A stretch of 64,000 nucleotides of DNA from an archaeon (GTDB lineage Archaea; Nanobdellota; Nanobdellia; Woesearchaeales; GW2011-AR9): the NCBI GenBank assembly GCA_002688265.1, contig NZCK01000007.1, positions 33,685 to 97,684 on the forward strand, written 5' to 3'. The position numbers and the translations under genes were made by a program. Positions 3,322-62,798 of the stretch are shown here, piece by piece (position 1 is the first letter of the stretch; every line of letters starts with the position of its first letter). Below the pieces are notes generated by a model. The model had not been told where the DNA came from. It worked only from the letters and a program-made list of their open reading frames with translations, and searched no databases.

Positions 3322-3342
3322 AAGTTATTATTCTCACAGTAG

Positions 3343-3486
3343 ATAAGGGCGAACGCGCGGCCCTACGCTAAAGCTTTAAATGTTTGACAAAGCTTGCGAT
3401 TTCGACCTGAGCGAAGCGAAGCTGAGAAGTGGAACCCAAGCCCGGCCGCGTTCCGAGCGTTTGTTGTACAAACGCGAAGCCTTATC
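3343..3486. ncRNA. Conserved GC-rich structured element, copy A. It is homologous to 53277-53425 in inverse orientation.
   Basis: Terminal helix gataagg/ccttatc. Inner long helix gggcgaacgcgcggcc with ggccgcgttcc. Internal hairpins aagcttt...aaagctt and cgtttg-ttgta-caaacg. It shares gggcgaacgYgcggcc, tcgacctgagc, gcgaagYtgagaRgYggaac, gcccggccgcgttccgag and cgaagcc with the reverse complement of copy B. The outer stem covaries between copies (ttggggagg/cctccccaa in B). Confidence 0.45.
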
Positions 3487-3547
3487 TACACCAATTTTCT
3501 TCTATTACAAGAGTAACTTATTTAAATTATTAAATTCTTGATACCGT

Positions 3548-6313: not shown

Positions 6314-8899
6314 ATGATTACAAAAGTACAAAAAGCAGATGGAACAGTAGTAGATTTCGATAAAGATTTTACAATTTCTTCATTATCACATATCTTACAA
6401 GAAAAAGCATCAATGGCAGAATCTGAGGCTGTAGAGATTGCAACAAACATAGTCAAAGTGATTGATAACCGAGAGATCGAAACACCATCAACAACAGATT
6501 TTGAACAATTAGTTAACTTAGTTGTGACAACCACTAAACTGGCTAGCAAAGGACAAGAAGTTGCTAACGAAGAAACAATAACAGAATTAGAATCAAACAC
6601 AGAAGAAGTCCAAACACAAACAGTTTCTGAAACTGAAGAAAAAAATGAAGAAGTGGTTGAAGAAATCCTTACTCAAGAAACTGCAACAGAACTACAAACA
6701 GATTTGAAACATTTACAAGAACATAATATAGATGTTAACGAACAAGCAACAAGAATCCTTAGCGAATCTACTGTTTTCGATGAACTTGGAAGATCCATTT
6801 TCTTAGACCGATACTCACTAAAATGTAAAAGAGACGATATTGAACAAGGAGACTTAGTAATTGCAATTACAAAAGAAGATCCAAAATATCCTAAAAAAGA
6901 TTTAGGGATTGTTAAGTCAATTGAAGGGGATAAATTTGCTTTACATATGATAACCGGAATGTATGCAGACACTGAAAACAATTACGAATTTACAACTTCC
7001 ATTTGGAAATGCGATAAACCAATAGAATCAATTAAGCAAGCACACAAAAGAATCGCACATGCAGCATCCACTATGGAAAAAACTCCAGAACTACAAGAAA
7101 AATGGGAGGCTGCATTCTTTGAAGAATTAAGTAAAAAACATATTCAACCAGCAGGAAGAATTATGACTGGAGCAAATGTTGGAGAAGGATACACACAAAA
7201 CTTGACTCTTTACAACTGTTATGTAATTCCTAGCCCACAAGATAGTAGAGAAGGAATTATTCAAGAAACACTCCACCAAATGACAGAAATTATGAGTAGA
7301 GGAGGAGGTGTTGGAATTAACCTATCAACTTTGCGTCCACGATACTCATATGTACAAGGAGTACATGGAAAATCTAGTGGAGCAGTTTCATGGGGAGGAC
7401 TTTACAGTTACACAACTGCCTTAATTGAACAAGGCGGTAGTCGTCGTGGAGCGCTAATGCTAATGCTTCAAGATTGGCACCCAGATGTAATTGAATTTAT
7501 CTCAGCTAAACGGAAAAAAGGAATGATTGAAAATGCAAACATTTCAGTTTTGTTTTCTGATAAATTCATGGAAGCTTTATCTAAAGGAGAAGATTGGAAT
7601 TTGGAATTTCCAGACTACGAAGCTGCTGGAATAAAACCTATTTACAAAGATGAATGGACTGGAGATATTGATCTTTGGAAATCAAAAGGTTACCCTACCA
7701 AAATTTACAATACAATCCCTGCAAGTGAAATCTGGGATCAAGTTATTAGTTCTGCTCACGCTAGCGCCGAACCAGGATTAGTTTTCATGGAACGTTACAA
7801 TAAAATGAGTAATTCATATTACTTCAATCCAATAATTTGCACCAACCCGTGCGGCGAACAAGGTTTACCTGCTTGGGGGGTTTGTAACTTAGGTCATCTT
7901 TATTTAGCCTCATTTGCAAGAAAAGTTGGAGAAGATGAAATTGGACCACTTTATGAAATTAATTGGTCAGATTTAAAAAAAGCTACTGCAACCCTTTCAC
8001 GATTCTTGGATAATGTAATTGATCTTACTCCATACCACTTCCAAGAAAACGAAGATAATCAAAAAGGAGAAAGACGAATTGGACTTGGGACTTTAGGTCT
8101 AGGAGAATTATTAATTAAATTACGTCTACGTTACGGTTCACCAGAATCGTTGGAATTAATAGATGAAATTTACAAGCAAATTTCTTTAGCTGTTTACAAA
8201 AGCAGTATTGAACTATCTAAAGAAAAAGGCATGTTTCCAAAATGTGACCCTGAAAAAATTGTAAAAAGTGGATTCATTCAAACACTGCCTGAAGAATTGC
8301 AAGCAGAAATTGTAGAACACGGTTTGCGTAACGTGACATTGACAACACAAGCTCCAACTGGAACTGTAGGAACAATGCTTGGAACTTCAACTGGAATTGA
8401 ACCATACTATGCCTTCGAATTTTTTAGGCAATCACGATTGGGATTTCATAAAGTGAATATTCCTCTTGCTGAAGGATACAAAGATAGTGAAGGTAATTTG
8501 CCAGATTTTTTTGTAACTGCAATGCAGATGACCCCATTAGATCATATTAGGGTGCAAGCAGCTGTACAACGTTGGACAGATTCTTCAATATCTAAAACCG
8601 CAAATGCACCTGAAGACTTCACTGTAGAGCAAACAAAACAATTGTATGAAGAAGCGTATCGCCTAGGTTGTAAAGGAGTTACAATCTATCGGGACAATTG
8701 CAGATATGAACAAGTTCTAACTACTGATGCTGAAACTGAAGAAAAAAATGCTAACAATGGAGATTGGGAAGCCAGTAATAAAGTTGAAGCGAAAGCAGAA
8801 TTGGCTGCGGTCTCTGAAACTGAAGAAACAATTGAAGGTGGCAAATGCGAATTAAAGTTTGATGAGAACGGCCAGATGTTTAAAAGCTGTAGTGATTAG
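6314..8899 (+). CDS. nrdJ: Adenosylcobalamin-dependent (class II) ribonucleotide reductase with an N-terminal ATP-cone.
   Basis: The ATP-cone-like N-terminus is VQKADGTVVDFDKDF. Class II RNR signature region is LYNCYVIP ... CTNPCGEQGLPAWGVCNLGHL. 861 aa. An RBS-like agaggtggtg precedes the ATG. Confidence 0.88.
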   Translation: MITKVQKADGTVVDFDKDFTISSLSHILQEKASMAESEAVEIATNIVKVIDNREIETPSTTDFEQLVNLVVTTTKLASKGQEVANEETITELESNTEEVQTQTVSETEEKNEEVVEEILTQETATELQTDLKHLQEHNIDVNEQATRILSESTVFDELGRSIFLDRYSLKCKRDDIEQGDLVIAITKEDPKYPKKDLGIVKSIEGDKFALHMITGMYADTENNYEFTTSIWKCDKPIESIKQAHKRIAHAASTMEKTPELQEKWEAAFFEELSKKHIQPAGRIMTGANVGEGYTQNLTLYNCYVIPSPQDSREGIIQETLHQMTEIMSRGGGVGINLSTLRPRYSYVQGVHGKSSGAVSWGGLYSYTTALIEQGGSRRGALMLMLQDWHPDVIEFISAKRKKGMIENANISVLFSDKFMEALSKGEDWNLEFPDYEAAGIKPIYKDEWTGDIDLWKSKGYPTKIYNTIPASEIWDQVISSAHASAEPGLVFMERYNKMSNSYYFNPIICTNPCGEQGLPAWGVCNLGHLYLASFARKVGEDEIGPLYEINWSDLKKATATLSRFLDNVIDLTPYHFQENEDNQKGERRIGLGTLGLGELLIKLRLRYGSPESLELIDEIYKQISLAVYKSSIELSKEKGMFPKCDPEKIVKSGFIQTLPEELQAEIVEHGLRNVTLTTQAPTGTVGTMLGTSTGIEPYYAFEFFRQSRLGFHKVNIPLAEGYKDSEGNLPDFFVTAMQMTPLDHIRVQAAVQRWTDSSISKTANAPEDFTVEQTKQLYEEAYRLGCKGVTIYRDNCRYEQVLTTDAETEEKNANNGDWEASNKVEAKAELAAVSETEETIEGGKCELKFDENGQMFKSCSD

Positions 8900-8902
8900 G
8901 GA

Positions 8903-8935
8903 TTTTTTGGTTTTACTTTTTTTATTTCATTGTTA
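8903..8935 (+). terminator. T-rich tract downstream of nrdJ (archaeal oligo-T terminator candidate).
   Basis: ggattttttggttttactttttttatttc lies immediately after the TAG stop. Confidence 0.25.
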
Positions 8936-8990
8936 AGATTCTATAAATTGATTCTAAAAAACCGTACGTATTAAATTCCATTTAAAATAC

Positions 8991-9160
8991 TTCAAGAGTA
9001 TGGCGGCACGGCCTGTGGCTTAAACAAACACAATCTCGAGCAAAGCTCTCCAAGCTGACTTTGCTAAAGCAAAGTAAGTTTTCCTGAAAATCCTACAGAA
9101 TTTTCTTTAAAGGTAAAATGTTTCTGTTTAAGGGCCTCGATGGGCGGCCATACTCTTGAA
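8991..9160. ncRNA. Rod-like structured element with a perfect 14-bp terminal inverted repeat. It could be an ncRNA or a miniature inverted-repeat element.
   Basis: ttcaagagtatggc (8991-9004) is the exact reverse complement of gccatactcttgaa (9147-9160). The stem continues as ggcc/ggcc and cttaaac/gtttaag. Internal hairpins are agcaaag...ctttgct and gaaaat...attttc. The island sits in the 330-nt gap between nrdJ and pyrB. Confidence 0.35.
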
Positions 9161-9232
9161 AATGTAGTTAACTTAATACATACAAAAAACCAACATATTT
9201 TTATATTTCATTGATTTATAGATATTTTTGAT

Positions 9233-10360
9233 ATGGAAAAAATATTCTGGGGAGCAACTTCTCAAATAGGAGAATTTCATAAAAACAAATTTCAAGAATT
9301 TTTATCAAAAGGGCCTAATGAATTAAAAAAACTTTGCACAAAAAGTAATGGACGCCTAAGACACATCATCCGAGCAGAACACATGGATAAGGAATTCTTG
9401 AACATTATATATTACACTGCCAATGCAGCTAGAAAAATAAGTAAAATTGATCCAAACTACCTTAAACAAAAATTACAACATGTATCAATACTAAATTATT
9501 TTGCACAACCAAGCAGTAGAACTTTTCTCTCTTTCTCTCGAGCTGAAAGTAAACTTGGTATCCAGCGAGAAGAAGTTAGAGAACTGCAAACATCAAGCAC
9601 AGTTAAAGGTGAATCAGATTTAGATTCAATTAGAACTTTAAGTTCGTATTTTGAAGGGATGGTTATTCGTCACCCCAGCAATCAATTTGATGCATTTGCA
9701 GTATGGGCCTTACACAACTCAGCAAGACCAATTCCCATTATTAACGCTGGGAGTGGGAGCCAAGAACATCCAACTCAAGCATTACTTGATTATTACACTA
9801 TTAAAAGATCACTTAAAAAAATAGATGGCATCTCAGTTGCATTTGTGGGAGATTGTCTGCGAGGAAGAACGGTTCGCTCAGCTGCTAAATTGCTTTGTTT
9901 GTATAATGATGTTACACTATACTTTGTTGCACCAGAACATTTGCAAATTGATGAAGAAACCCAAGAATATTGTAGGTCCAATGGATTAAAAGTACACAAA
10001 ATTTCAACAGAAATTAAAGAAATTATTAAAGAAGTTGATGTATTATACATGACTAGAATTCAAAATGAACACGGAGGCGATGGAAAGTATCCTCTTGAGT
10101 TTAAACTAAATTTAGAAATGCTTGAAGCTATGAAAGAAAATAGTATTATTATGCATCCAATGCCCAAACGTGAAGAGATGGACCCAAGAATTGATTATCT
10201 AAAAAATAATCCAAAGGTAATGATTTGGCGTCAACAAAGAAATGGTATGTGGGTTAGAGTTGCAGTATTGGCTTACATTTATGGCAAAGACTTAGAAATT
10301 AGGAACCATTATGCGAAAATTGAACAAAAAATGGCTAAAATTCTTAGACATAAAGTTTAA
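9233..10360 (+). CDS. pyrB: Aspartate carbamoyltransferase catalytic chain.
   Basis: Block-by-block similarity to the PyrB sequence as recalled from memory, not checked against a database. Blocks are SSRTFLSFS (STRTR region), IRHP, EHPTQALLD, VAFVGDCLRGRTVRS, LYMTRIQNE and HPMPKREEM. HPTQ rather than HPCQ argues for ATCase over OTCase. There is an N-terminal extension of about 40 aa and no pyrI adjacent. Confidence 0.85.
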   Translation: MEKIFWGATSQIGEFHKNKFQEFLSKGPNELKKLCTKSNGRLRHIIRAEHMDKEFLNIIYYTANAARKISKIDPNYLKQKLQHVSILNYFAQPSSRTFLSFSRAESKLGIQREEVRELQTSSTVKGESDLDSIRTLSSYFEGMVIRHPSNQFDAFAVWALHNSARPIPIINAGSGSQEHPTQALLDYYTIKRSLKKIDGISVAFVGDCLRGRTVRSAAKLLCLYNDVTLYFVAPEHLQIDEETQEYCRSNGLKVHKISTEIKEIIKEVDVLYMTRIQNEHGGDGKYPLEFKLNLEMLEAMKENSIIMHPMPKREEMDPRIDYLKNNPKVMIWRQQRNGMWVRVAVLAYIYGKDLEIRNHYAKIEQKMAKILRHKV

Positions 10361-10384: not shown

Positions 10385-10717
10385 GTGAAATTTAAATTAG
10401 AAACAAAACAATCAAAAGCTATTCGCATATCTTTGCTAGATGATTCAGGGAAAGAAGTAGCTCGAGCGTTCATGTTTCTAATCACTAACGACTTACATGA
10501 AGGGCCATATGCGCTTTTAGAAGATGTATTTGTGAATGAAGAATTTAGGGGTCAAGGCTTAGGAAAACAGATTGTAAAGAAGGCTGTTGAAGAAGCCAAA
10601 AGTCTTGGGTGTTATAAAATAATTGGAACTAGCAGAAACTTAAGGGAAAAAGTTCACGAGTTCTATCGATTATTGGGTTTTGAAGAATACGGTAAAGAAT
10701 TTCGAATGAATCTATAA
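10385..10717 (+). CDS. GNAT-family N-acetyltransferase.
   Basis: Acetyl-CoA binding motif A is FRGQGLGKQIVKKAVEEAKSLG. 110 aa. Confidence 0.65.
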   Translation: MKFKLETKQSKAIRISLLDDSGKEVARAFMFLITNDLHEGPYALLEDVFVNEEFRGQGLGKQIVKKAVEEAKSLGCYKIIGTSRNLREKVHEFYRLLGFEEYGKEFRMNL

Positions 10718-10767
10718 GAAGTTACCAAAATACTTATAAACAGATTATTAGATTCTTGTGATTATAC

Positions 10768-10877
10768 GGGACTGTAGCTCAGCGGGAGAGCGCCAGACTG
10801 AAGATGCTCAAAAATCAGTGGTTTTTGGCCAATCATCTGACATCTGGATGTCAAGGGTTCAAATCCCTTCAGTCCCA
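10768..10877 (+). tRNA. tRNA-Phe (GAA) with an intron of about 38 nt at the canonical 37/38 position. No encoded CCA.
   Basis: Acceptor gggactg/cagtccc plus discriminator A. D-arm gctc...gagc. Anticodon stem ccaga/tctgg with loop cuGAAga. The stem is interrupted by tgctcaaaaatcagtggtttttggccaatcatctgaca. T-arm aaggg-ttcaaat-ccctt. Confidence 0.8.
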
Positions 10878-10950
10878 CTTTCTTTCCAATAATTTAAGTA
10901 CTCAAATAACTTCTTTAATTACCCCAGATTATAATTAAATAAAAGAGGAA

Positions 10951-22072: not shown

Positions 22073-22642
22073 TCACCACTTCTTCTCAAACATCTTTCCA
22101 AAAGATTTCATGAAATTTTCTCCCTTAGATTTGTCTTTATCTGGATCACGGACAATGAACCACACTATTAATCCAAAGACTAAAATTATTATTAACAATT
22201 CCGTGACTTCACTACTCCACCAACCAAAAATATCATAAGGTCCAGTCCAGAGTCCTAAGGAGGCTCCGAATACATAAGCTACAAAACCAATAGAAACTAT
22301 TGCAATTAATGGAGCTGCAGCTTTGGCAAAATCTGTTCCAAATATACCCATCAATAAAAGTAACATAATTGCAGCAACAGAAATTAGAGAAATACTAGGT
22401 AAGGCGTTATTCATTACATCAACAGGGTCATATCCTAAAGGATAATTTCCAGTAATATGTGGTACCACAAACAGTAAGGCCAGAGTTAAAGCAATTACAA
22501 CTGAAAAATTCTTATTATCTTTAAACAGTGGCATTTTTGTTGCCACAGCATAGACAATTGTAAACACCAACAAGAATGGTAATAGAAAATCAACTACCCC
22601 CAAGTTTTGAAATAATTGTGCTAAATTTGAAAATGTTGCCAT
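22073..22642 (-). CDS. Paralogous membrane protein, copy 2 of a tandem triplet.
   Basis: MATFSNLAQLFQNLGVVDFLLPFLLVFTIVYAV. Same length class as its neighbours. Confidence 0.55.
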   Translation of the reverse strand: MATFSNLAQLFQNLGVVDFLLPFLLVFTIVYAVATKMPLFKDNKNFSVVIALTLALLFVVPHITGNYPLGYDPVDVMNNALPSISLISVAAIMLLLLMGIFGTDFAKAAAPLIAIVSIGFVAYVFGASLGLWTGPYDIFGWWSSEVTELLIIILVFGLIVWFIVRDPDKDKSKGENFMKSFGKMFEKKW

Positions 22643-43889: not shown

Positions 43890-43948
43890 TTCTAATTGAA
43901 ATTTTATTGCCAATACTTTTATTAAGAAACTACTATGTTGAATGTTCC

Positions 43949-44896
43949 ATGCCAGATACTATTGTAATCGAAGAATCTACTGGAGAAATTGGTTGCGCTC
44001 CCACTGAGAGAAGCGTTAAGACTCTTTTAAATTACGGAATTGTCAACATCGATAAAGTCAAAGGGCCAAGCTCACACCAAGTTTCAGATTACGTTCAAAA
44101 AATTCTTGGTCTTAAAAAAGCAGGACACTCAGGAACACTGGATCCAGCTGTTACTGGAGTTCAACCGGTTGCTATTGGCAGAGCTACAAAAATCACTCAG
44201 TTTTTATTAACAGCTCCAAAAGAATACATTTGCGTGATGCACGTTCATAAAGATTTGGATCCTGAGAAAATAACTTCTGTTATGAACACTTTTAAAGGTA
44301 AAATTCAACAAATGCCGCCAGTTAAAAGTGCAGTTAAAAGACAATTGCGAACACGAGAAATTTATGAGCTTGAAATATTAGAGATCGATAAAAGAGATGT
44401 GTTGTTTAGAGTAAAGTGTGAAGCCGGTACTTACATTCGTGCTTTATGTAATGATATTGGAAAGAAAATTGGTGGAGCACATATGGCTTGTTTGCGTAGG
44501 TCGGCTGCTGGAGCGTTTGATGAAACAGATAACTTAGTTACACTTGATGATTTGCGTGATGCACTTTGGTATTGGAAGGAGAAAAGTAATGACAAATACT
44601 TGCGTTATTGTATTCAACCTGTTGAGAATGCACTTAAATATATGAAAAAAATCTGGGTCTTTGATTCAGCTTTACTAAGTTTAAGTCATGGACGAGATTT
44701 GGGAGCTCCAGGGATTTCTAAATTAGAGAATTTCAAAAGTGGAGAAACTGTAGCCATCATGACTCTGAAAGGAGAAGTTGTGGCTTGCGGAGTTGCTGAA
44801 ATGTCAGCTGTTCAGATAAGTACGATGCGCAAAGGGATGGCAGTTAAAACTTCAAAAGTGTTTTTTGAAATGCCTTCTGAAGGCAAAGAATTATAA
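43949..44896 (+). CDS. cbf5: tRNA/rRNA pseudouridine synthase Cbf5 (TruB family) with C-terminal PUA domain.
   Basis: KKAGHSGTLDPAVTGVQPVAIGRATK is the TruB catalytic Asp motif. N-terminal GIVNIDKVKGPSSHQV. PUA-like C-terminus. The ATG at 43949 is preferred over the TTG at 43907 of the track ORF. Confidence 0.8.
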   Translation: MPDTIVIEESTGEIGCAPTERSVKTLLNYGIVNIDKVKGPSSHQVSDYVQKILGLKKAGHSGTLDPAVTGVQPVAIGRATKITQFLLTAPKEYICVMHVHKDLDPEKITSVMNTFKGKIQQMPPVKSAVKRQLRTREIYELEILEIDKRDVLFRVKCEAGTYIRALCNDIGKKIGGAHMACLRRSAAGAFDETDNLVTLDDLRDALWYWKEKSNDKYLRYCIQPVENALKYMKKIWVFDSALLSLSHGRDLGAPGISKLENFKSGETVAIMTLKGEVVACGVAEMSAVQISTMRKGMAVKTSKVFFEMPSEGKEL

Positions 44897-46719: not shown

Positions 46720-46740
46720 AAAATTCTTTTGTTTAAGTTG

Positions 46741-46854
46741 TTGGCGCGCAGGTCCATTTGCCGAGATATACAAAATCACTGCGCAGTTGCCTTTCTGGCA
46801 CCAAGAATCTTCGATTGTTGAGTGTTTGGGGTGGCCCGGTCTGACCAGCGCCAA
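46741..46854. ncRNA. GC-rich structured element C (TTGGCGCG...CGCCAA-flanked). Related to element D.
   Basis: Terminal helix ttggcgcgcaggtc/gaccagcgccaa. It shares gatacaaaat...tgcgcag with the reverse complement of 62607-62737. It sits between convergent gene ends. Confidence 0.35.
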
Positions 46855-46883
46855 AACAACTTGATTTTTAATCTTAATAAAAA

Positions 46884-47480
46884 CTATTTCAACTCAATAA
46901 CCATACCATCCCAACAAGGGTTAATGACTTTAGTGTCTTTGATTTTATCAATTGCACCAATAGTCTCATGAATATGACCAGAAATAGCAAGCTTTGGTTT
47001 AATCCTCTCAATAAACTTACGATAATCCATATTACCAACATGACCCATTGACAACAAATCTAATTTGGTTTTGTAAACTGGACCATGAGTTACAAGTACA
47101 ACTTTCTTCTTCTTGTACTTGCCATACCAAATTCTTGCAACCTTCCTAAACTCTGGATCTTGCTGAGAAAAACCATCGCCACCATACCCAAGCAAGACAT
47201 AATCGCCTACCTCTACCTCAGTCTTGTGTAAGTTGATCAGATTGTCATAACGTTGAATCGTGACAGTATATTCTTCTCCCTCTTCATGATTGCCTGGAAT
47301 AATGTAAACAGGTTTATCCCAAGAATCAAATTTCTTGAACATCTGAGTTAAAGAACGATTAAAATTTGTGAAATCTCCAGCAATAATTACAAACTCAATG
47401 TCCTTGTCTTTCGCTCGCTTATCTAACTTGGCAAGATGTTTTTTATCCTCATGGATATCCGAAAATACTAGGAATTTCAT
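46884..47480 (-). CDS. Calcineurin-like metallophosphoesterase.
   Basis: MKFLVFSDIHED, IIAGDFTNF, GNHE and GHIHE. The TATA-like tatatatc about 30 nt upstream of this ATG lies inside the longer track ORF, so the start is reassigned from 47525 to 47480. Confidence 0.7.
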   Translation of the reverse strand: MKFLVFSDIHEDKKHLAKLDKRAKDKDIEFVIIAGDFTNFNRSLTQMFKKFDSWDKPVYIIPGNHEEGEEYTVTIQRYDNLINLHKTEVEVGDYVLLGYGGDGFSQQDPEFRKVARIWYGKYKKKKVVLVTHGPVYKTKLDLLSMGHVGNMDYRKFIERIKPKLAISGHIHETIGAIDKIKDTKVINPCWDGMVIELK

Positions 47481-53276: not shown

Positions 53277-53425
53277 TTGGGGAGGCTTCGCTCGCTAACG
53301 CTCACTCGGAACGCGGCCGGGCCTAAGTTCCGCCTCTCAACTTCGCCTTTCTTTAAAAGGCTCAGGTCGAGATCAATGTTTGATTTGCTGCTTTGGCATA
53401 TTGGCCGCACGTTCGCCCTCCCCAA
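53277..53425. ncRNA. Conserved GC-rich structured element, copy B. It is in inverse orientation relative to copy A at 3343-3486.
   Basis: Its reverse complement aligns block-for-block with copy A. The terminal helix ttggggagg/cctccccaa covaries with A's gataagg/ccttatc. The overlapping 5' end of track ORF 53277..54218 is judged non-coding. Confidence 0.45.
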
Positions 53426-62538: not shown

Positions 62539-62606
62539 AGAAAAGTATTTTTTGCTTATAATGTTTGCTATTTGGCTTTGGAGAAGAGAATAATTGAGAT
62601 TAATTC

Positions 62607-62737
62607 TTGGCGCGGGTCAGGCTGAGCCACACCATAGCACTGCGCACCCATTTTGTATCTTGCCTTGAGCAAAACAAAATACTTGTGCTAAATTGTTAAT
62701 TTCACTTGATATTCCAGCGAGGGGACCCACGCGCCAA
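62607..62737. ncRNA. GC-rich structured element D (TTGGCGCGGG...CCCACGCGCCAA-flanked). Related to element C in opposite orientation.
   Basis: Terminal helix ttggcgcgggtc/gacccacgcgccaa. It contains gcactgcgcacccattttgtatc, the reverse complement of C's gatacaaaat..tgcgcag block. A cgcc-aaa-ggcg-tttt hairpin plus T-run lies at its 3' edge. It sits in the divergent promoter region between rpiB and the arginase-like gene. Confidence 0.35.
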
Positions 62738-62798
62738 AGGCGTTTTATTGGGAGCAGAATACGAAAGCTAAATAAACCCGTTTTGAGTTATTTACTTC

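Follow-up and report, generated by a model that had tools for sequence, protein, structure and literature searches.

Prokaryotic MITEs are exemplified by the Sulfolobus SM1-SM4 elements, and several of them, such as the Correia elements of Neisseria, ERIC, RUP and BOX, carry functional RNA or promoter features. The Correia elements are bacterial, have 26-bp repeats and a TA duplication, and are present in hundreds of copies. Insertion sequences of the IS66/ISBst12 type have ends that start with GTA(A) and are associated with 8-9-bp duplications (ISfinder family table). According to a published census, MITE densities are very high in DPANN genomes, among the highest in archaea, with 105 MITEs per Mb in a Woesearchaeal genome (PMC11602168), and the presence of a MITE family in the genome described here would therefore be unsurprising.

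The stretch of DNA that was analysed (the window, 64,000 nucleotides, GC content 34.7%) is derived from an uncultured, AT-rich marine DPANN (Woese/Nanoarchaeota-like) archaeon; the nearest named relatives of its proteins are Woesearchaeota/Nanoarchaeota, and it encodes an intron-containing tRNA as well as the archaeal ribosomal protein S3Ae. In such an AT-rich genome, GC-rich intergenic islands are conspicuous. Two of these, C and D, had been grouped in a preliminary description as elements bounded by TTGG and CCAA, for which a small-RNA family, a regulatory-protein binding cassette or a miniature mobile element were considered. Among these options the mobile element fits best, but not with the TTGG/CCAA ends that were assigned to it: it seems (with a probability of roughly 0.6) that C and D represent the inner stems of old, eroded members of a new MITE family, and that a third element, E (8964-9183), is an intact one. 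The features of C and D are as follows.

46741..46854, plus strand: inner core of copy C, the GC-rich, stem-bounded body with the motif ACAAAATCACTGCGCAG.
46727..46740, no strand: worn terminal inverted repeat of copy C on the side of the 589-aa gene, CTTTTGTTTAAGTT.
46855..46884, no strand: 16-nt spacer and worn terminal inverted repeat of copy C, abutting the metallophosphoesterase stop codon.
62607..62737, minus strand: inner core of copy D; its minus-strand reading has the same orientation as C(+).
62593..62606, no strand: left terminal repeat remnant of copy D, ATTGAGATTAATTC versus GTATGTATTAAGTTC in L121, with the spacer deleted.
62738..62762, no strand: worn right end of copy D and right copy of its target duplication; ...TTATTGGGAGCAGAATAC aligns with TTAATACGTACCAAAATAC of L121.

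Much of what had been described for the two islands stands: C begins with TTGGCGCG and ends with GCGCCAA, D begins with TTGGCGCG and ends with CGCGCCAA, and in both a terminal helix of 8 bp (TTGGCGC(G)/(C)GCGCCAA) continues across a bulge of 2-3 nt into GGTC/GACC (C) or GGGTC/GACCC (D). Both core strings (core ...AAAAT-NNN-TGCGCAG) are likewise present in C and D, and the window has exactly two occurrences of the shared 3' block CTGACCNGCGCCAA and exactly two of the core, where ~ 0.3 are expected at the mismatch level used; the sharing of ends and core is far above chance. The shared core had been thought to lie in opposite orientations in the two elements, which is not the case. The two asymmetric ends and the core of C(+) all align with those of D(-) (global alignment z=9.4, with a clearly lower score for the reverse orientation), so D is the whole element inverted, and the orientation of the core relative to the ends is the same in both. 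The positions were given correctly, C being located between the convergent gene ends of a 589-aa coiled-coil protein and a metallophosphoesterase, and D between the divergent promoters of rpiB and an arginase-like gene.

In addition to P1 (TTGGCGC/GCGCCAA) and GGTC/GACC, C has a stem GCCG/CGGT. The stems of D are P1 (TTGGCGCG/CGCGCCAA), GGGTC/GACCC, GCTG/CAGC and P3 (TAGCAC/GTGCTA), and it also holds an AAG, an A/T hairpin (ATTTTGT/ACAAAAT) and GGGTGCGCAG; its sequence is identical across three assemblies of one species. C is without the 5' half of the P3/P4 core that is present in D, L115 and L121, i.e. the 5' strands of P3 and of the A/T hairpin are missing altogether, so that one of the two copies originally described does not have the core fold. 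As to the surroundings of C, the gene of Cbf5 (the H/ACA pseudouridine synthase; 43907-44896) lies 1.8 kb upstream, no H/ACA RNA was recognised near that gene, and the order Cbf5, 589-aa coiled-coil protein, metallophosphoesterase, S3Ae is preserved among relatives.

The site of D in related genomes is what connects these islands to a mobile element. At the rpiB/arginase site of the relative L121 (protein 86% identical) there is a 187-bp insert (783-969) at the exact point of D, so that the window and L121 share the position of an insert of ~ 190 bp, which separates the TATA boxes of rpiB and the arginase-like gene. At its ends the L121 insert has 14-bp inverted repeats, GTATGTATTAAGTT on one side and GTACGTATTAAGTT in reverse complement on the other (a 13/14 match), and outside these a perfect 8-bp direct repeat, CAAAATAC. 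In four relatives (L122, L125, L128 and L109, whose neighbouring protein is 68-85% identical to that of the window) the D site is empty, with an uninterrupted 96-119-bp spacer that contains a single CAAAATGC-type site, and in the window D occupies a ~ 30-bp gap between two divergent core promoters that are both still intact. The L121 body is homologous to D (z=4.5) and to the L115 element described below (z=4.2), and this homology, the insertion of the L121 element at the site of D and the worn repeats kept by C and L115 (see below) link C and D to the MITE family. As a separate observation on this neighbourhood, the arginase-like gene of the relative L126 is followed downstream by a helicase (Helicase_C, HHH_5; 6331-9531) that contains an intein with a LAGLIDADG endonuclease and is 1066 aa long, compared to ~ 560 aa for the lineage of the window.

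A search of the window with the terminal repeat of L121 gave one further pair, 8964-8977 and 9170-9183, bounding a hairpin element, E, which was noted as a GC-rich hairpin independently of this search. Its features are given below.

8964..9183, no strand: copy E, an intact 220-bp member of the terminal-repeat family, with a long imperfect hairpin as its body.
8956..8963, no strand: left target-site duplication of copy E, 8 bp, AAAAAACC.
9184..9191, no strand: right target-site duplication of copy E, 8 bp, AAAAAACC, a perfect copy.

The terminal repeats of E are GTACGTATTAAATT (8964-8977) and, in reverse complement, GTATGTATTAAGTT (9170-9183), which match at 13/14 positions, and GTATGTATTAAGTT is identical in E and the L121 element, that is, in two different genomes. 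The 14-bp terminal inverted repeats of the intact copies (E; L121 783-969) can be written as GTAYGTATTAAGTT and are located 3-16 nt outside the GC-rich stem. E and the L121 element have in common the terminal repeats, the duplication length and the layout (repeat, 3-16-nt AT-rich spacer, long perfect stem, variable centre), which together amount to the signature of a MITE family. The inner stem of E is 17 bp long (TTCAAGAGTATGGCGGC/GCGGCCATACTCTTGAA), and its interior is not significantly similar to the other elements (z=2-4 at the ends), so E is assigned to the family on the basis of its termini and layout, not of its centre. Its neighbour is aspartate carbamoyltransferase, for which the protein of the closest relative is only 61% identical. 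The elements are 158-220 bp long and non-coding, with only spurious ORF overlaps.

With these intact copies at hand, TTGG and CCAA cannot be kept as the element boundaries that they had been taken for: they end an internal stem, and worn outer repeats lie outside it. No target duplication is found directly outside TTGG/CCAA; 8-bp duplications are present outside the outer repeats in E and L121. C, D and L115 retain only the worn inner halves of the terminal repeats. On one side of C, the inner 7-mer AACTTAA (minus strand) of 46727..46740 is intact and directly abuts P1, while TATTAAG is found 18 nt out on the other side, both facing inward; AACTTAA has a frequency of 1.6e-4 per position-strand in the window, and the joint chance of the two inward 7-mers is ~ 1e-5 (from window 7-mer frequencies of 1.6e-4 and 6.3e-5). 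The minus-strand sequence of the C repeat at 46871-46884 is GTTTTTATTAAGAT, which departs from the consensus at 3 positions, and there is no recognisable target-site duplication at C. The remnants of D, ATTAATTC and ...AGAATAC, align with the ends of L121 but are not significant alone, the left-repeat match (62593..62606 versus L121) included, and the target duplication of D is degraded (AGAATA(A)/AGAATAC). L115 retains AACTTAAT 1 nt from its P1 stem; its left-side worn repeat is not significant on its own.

Orthologous loci of the C site were fetched via the neighbouring proteins. In L115 (metallophosphoesterase 78% identical) a homologous element is present at this site, with TTGGCGCG/GCGCCAA ends as in C and a compensated GGCC/GGCC in place of GGTC/GACC, while in L106 and L116 the element is absent. 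Instead of element C, these two loci (L106 8565-8654, L116 6951-7048) contain a GC-rich hairpin of 57 nt, AAATGCAGCAGCATTTGATAGTGCGAACGGCATGCACTGCGCTTAGCCATTTAAGAAG, which is conserved between them and has on either side a perfect direct repeat of 30 bp, made up of the last nine metallophosphoesterase codons and the stop; this arrangement resembles an insertion whose target duplication is unusually long, or the remnant of an integration at the 3' end of the gene. The D and L115 elements are 84% identical (93/111, z=17) although they are found at different loci in different species, and they are closer to each other than either is to its positional counterpart, as is expected for copies of a mobile master or upon gene conversion among copies. 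The terminal stem of the L121 element (TAGAAAAGAGCACC/GGTGCTCTTTTCTA) differs completely from that of its positional counterpart D, which counts against the MITE reading in that it requires either independent insertions at one hotspot or a replacement by gene conversion.

Following the MITE reading, an intact member would be ~ 190-220 bp long and non-coding, and would consist of a 14-bp terminal inverted repeat (GTAYGTATTAAGTT), a 3-16-nt AT-rich spacer, a long GC-rich stem and a centre, of which the stem presumably corresponds to the 'TTGGCGCG...CGCGCCAA' part in C and D. The centre is variable and in D, L115 and L121 holds a short helix, an A/T hairpin and a YGCGCAG motif. Insertion duplicates 8 bp of the target (shown by E and L121), and mobilisation may proceed in trans by a DDE-type transposase, which would recognise the terminal repeats and make cuts staggered by 8 bp. 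C and D, from which the outer 5-6 nt of the repeats (and in D the spacer as well) appear to have been lost, are probably immobile fossils, which may have persisted where insertion is tolerated, i.e. just after a stop codon between convergent genes in the case of C, and between divergent core promoters in the case of D. The GC-rich stem would then be an ancestral part of the body, and its strict complementarity between the two strands would fit an inverted repeat at the DNA level.

Not all observations are accommodated equally well. Neither a cognate transposase gene flanked by the family repeats nor another terminal-repeat pair was found in the window and the ~ 270 kb of related loci that were searched. 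The host genome yielded three copies only over 73 kb, and the family was otherwise seen in just three other contigs. A 9.4-kb extension of the same scaffold gave no further copy, only an intron-containing tRNA. This tRNA is a GC-rich island in its own right (L163 19669-19790, minus strand), located upstream of the EF-2 gene ~ 7 kb past the end of the window. The collection scans made use of C/D-specific patterns that were built before the true ends were known. The scan of genome contigs for TTGGCGCG-N85-115-CTGACCNGCGCCAA, too weak a pattern, gave 104 chance matches in GC-rich bacteria and 0 in AT-rich archaea, and two scans of viral contigs likewise gave chance matches only. For a host-adapted MITE it is unusual that the body is GC-rich where the genome has 35% GC. 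Furthermore, D and L115 have retained their inner body much better than their ends, which is not predicted by simple neutral decay and hints at selection on the inner part.

This last point leads to the alternative that survives best, which is possible, if on the unlikely side: that the stem-bounded inner body is a functional structured small RNA, either as cargo of the MITE or through domestication once inserted. The predicted fold of such an RNA comprises P1, P1', P2 and P3, and an A/U hairpin surrounded by an asymmetric loop (5' AAG, 3' NNNYGCGCA); this conserved loop, in which the palindrome UGCGCA lies, would be a binding site for a protein or a pairing site for a second RNA. Besides being GC-rich within an AT-rich genome, the inner part is indeed far better conserved than the worn repeats (84% between D and L115, versus 78% for the flanking proteins). 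D, L115 and L121 share helix P3 (as TAGCAC/GTGCTA, TTGCAC/GTGCAA and TACGAC/GTCGTA), the 5' AAG, the A/T hairpin and the 3' NNNYGCGCAG, the single-stranded AAG and YGCGCAG being invariant. In the alignment of these elements, three sequences only, 94% of the cells are paired and both partners have changed in 11/29 pairs, figures that are purely descriptive because the structure was derived from those same three sequences; 0/500 shuffles reached this level, and slid controls were 37-49% paired. A single G-U pair in P2 of C favours the C(+)/D(-) strand.

Against a small RNA, one-sided changes (G-C to G-U) are found in 0/29 pairs, and pairs that are Watson-Crick on both strands are at least as compatible with an inverted repeat in DNA as with a helix in RNA. 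The fold energies of C and D are no better than those of shuffles (z=-0.5 to -2.0), the absence of the 5' strands of P3 and P4 from C means that the fold is lost in one of the two window copies, and on inspection by eye C, D, L115 and L121 have no promoter-like box at a distance that is constant among them, whichever orientation is considered. Several close relatives lack the element, which holds for both loci, and a metagenome scan with the core and 3' end returned only the D locus of the same species. Rfam 15 gave no match at C or D at gathering or permissive thresholds. The small-RNA option of the preliminary description is thus left without positive support, given the Rfam null, the lack of a consistent promoter and the missing half of the core in C.

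A number of known RNA classes and origins were considered for the inner body and rejected. An H/ACA RNA does not fit, as there is no ACA after the stem in D and L115, nor does a C/D box RNA, as there is no RUGAUGA and the CUGA of C and D is CUUGG in L115. There is no GA/GA K-turn next to a 3-nt bulge, and on inspection the bulges of the terminal helix are 2 nt or 3x1 instead of the 3-4-3 of a bulge-helix-bulge. The resemblance of GUGGCUCAGCCUG to the start of a tRNA D-arm is deemed a coincidence, the matching 3' strand of the D-stem being absent. In C(-), E(+) and L121(+), the TATTAAG of the terminal repeat lies ~ 23 nt ahead of P1, where it could serve as a TATA box, but the spacing fails in D and L115.

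For the window as a whole, Rfam reported only two tRNAs at the gathering threshold, and nothing at C, D, A, B, E and F at the permissive one. A tRNA-Phe gene (10768-10877), found by the Rfam tRNA model and missed by ARAGORN, has a 41-nt intron within the anticodon loop and a 21-nt inverted repeat on both sides (10716-10736 and 10895-10915, 76% complementary). ARAGORN placed a 90-nt tRNA-Ile (anticodon AAT) on the minus strand at 22139-22228, which is probably a false positive, being without Rfam support and inside a long ORF (22073-22642). Another GC-rich intergenic island (1160-1290) has several hairpins, among which GATGTTCCTGC...GCAGGAACATC, enclosing a G-rich loop, and GGGAGCC...GGACTCCC; it has no Rfam match and is unrelated to C, D and E. 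In general, the GC islands of this genome are mostly tRNAs or repeated elements.

A more specific combination of the two readings, in which the MITE is the vehicle of a structured RNA module (with the invariant AAG/YGCGCAG loop) that was domesticated at the C and D loci, is distinctly doubtful. It would account for the inner 115-130 nt being 84% identical between species while the transposon ends decay.

That the element is a binding cassette at the DNA level is very unlikely. In such a cassette the palindromic GC-rich boxes (TGCGCA, GCGCGC, TTGGCGCG) would be sites for a dimeric protein, and the element would act as a regulator or insulator between the neighbouring genes. The core palindromes (CTGCGCAG in C; TGCGCA in D, L115 and L121), the complementarity that is equal on both strands, and the location of D exactly between two divergent promoters are consistent with this. 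C, on the other hand, lies between convergent 3' ends, where there is no promoter to regulate, conservation of the terminal GC boxes does not extend to L121 and E, the same promoters run without the element in related genomes, and no candidate regulator is linked. A mere chance resemblance of two unrelated GC-rich intergenic hairpins, which might be suspected from there being only two window copies with TTGGCGCG ends and from the weak individual fold z-scores, is practically negligible in view of pairwise alignment z-scores of 9-17, pattern counts that far exceed those of shuffles, and the homolog at the orthologous C site of another species (L115).

A third island, B (53277-53425), had been grouped with C and D on account of its own TTGG...CCAA ends. 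The homologs of B are in fact A (minus strand, 3340-3490) and an element in the relative L109 (5739-5871), and since B belongs to this other family its TTGG...CCAA is coincidental. The notion of recurrent TTGG...CCAA islands is thereby lost, as B is from another family and the ortholog at the D site in L121 has a quite different terminal stem. The members of the A/B/L109 family are GC-rich elements of ~ 150 nt (A on the minus strand, B on the plus strand), in which the terminal helix differs completely per copy (TAGATAAGG, TTGGGGAGG, GAGTAAGG) with complementarity kept, and in which internal blocks (CTCGGAACGCGGCCGGGCC, CAGGTCG, GGCCGCGCGTTCGCCC) are strongly conserved. The GAACGCGGCC/GGCCGCGCGTTC helix of this family has a compensated change in L109, from G-C to T-A. 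B and the L109 copy both adjoin a DUF3335 gene, and Rfam gave no match for the family, which may represent a genuine small RNA or a further MITE family.

If C, D and E are plain MITE fossils and copies, their value lies mainly in annotation, in that GC-rich islands in AT-rich DPANN genomes are not automatically RNA genes. The terminal repeat and the 8-bp duplication provide a handle for finding the transposase of the family. Insertion hotspots can be mapped as well, two being visible already, directly after stop codons and between divergent core promoters, and with DPANN genomes being tiny, active or recent transposons are relevant to how these genomes change. If, instead, the inner module is an RNA that is transcribed and under selection, it would exemplify the spread of RNA genes on MITEs in archaea, and a domesticated module, taken together with the A/B/L109 family, would if true suggest that DPANN archaea have a class of mobile mini-elements that bear RNAs.

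Compared with known systems, the C/D family is most like the prokaryotic MITEs. It shares with these, including those of archaea and DPANN (PMC11602168), a length below 250 bp, the absence of coding capacity, terminal inverted repeats and a duplication of fixed length, as well as an intergenic location, the possibility to fold into a long hairpin and presence or absence between relatives. It may also share with them the occurrence of several copies per genome. It differs from them in that no parent insertion sequence was found, in its GC-rich body in a 35% GC host, in an internal stem that differs completely between copies while remaining perfectly complementary, and in the loss of the outer repeat bases from C and D. 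With respect to a possible parent, the 8-bp duplication and the repeats starting with GTA, a likeness compared over three bases, are reminiscent of the IS66/ISBst12 type, for which the difference is that no transposase gene was found for the C/D family. IS6, IS256, IS1595 and ISL3 also make 8-bp duplications and are equally possible relatives. REP/BIME and the palindromic elements derived from IS200/IS605 (PATEs) are, like the elements described here, GC-rich extragenic palindromes that are repeated between genes, but they are without the terminal inverted repeats and target duplications that the intact copies both have. The likeness to the Correia elements is that of a MITE whose transcript or signals could affect its neighbours, with copies located at gene ends and in promoter regions, whereas the 26-bp repeats, the TA duplication, the copy number and the bacterial host of the Correia elements set the two apart.
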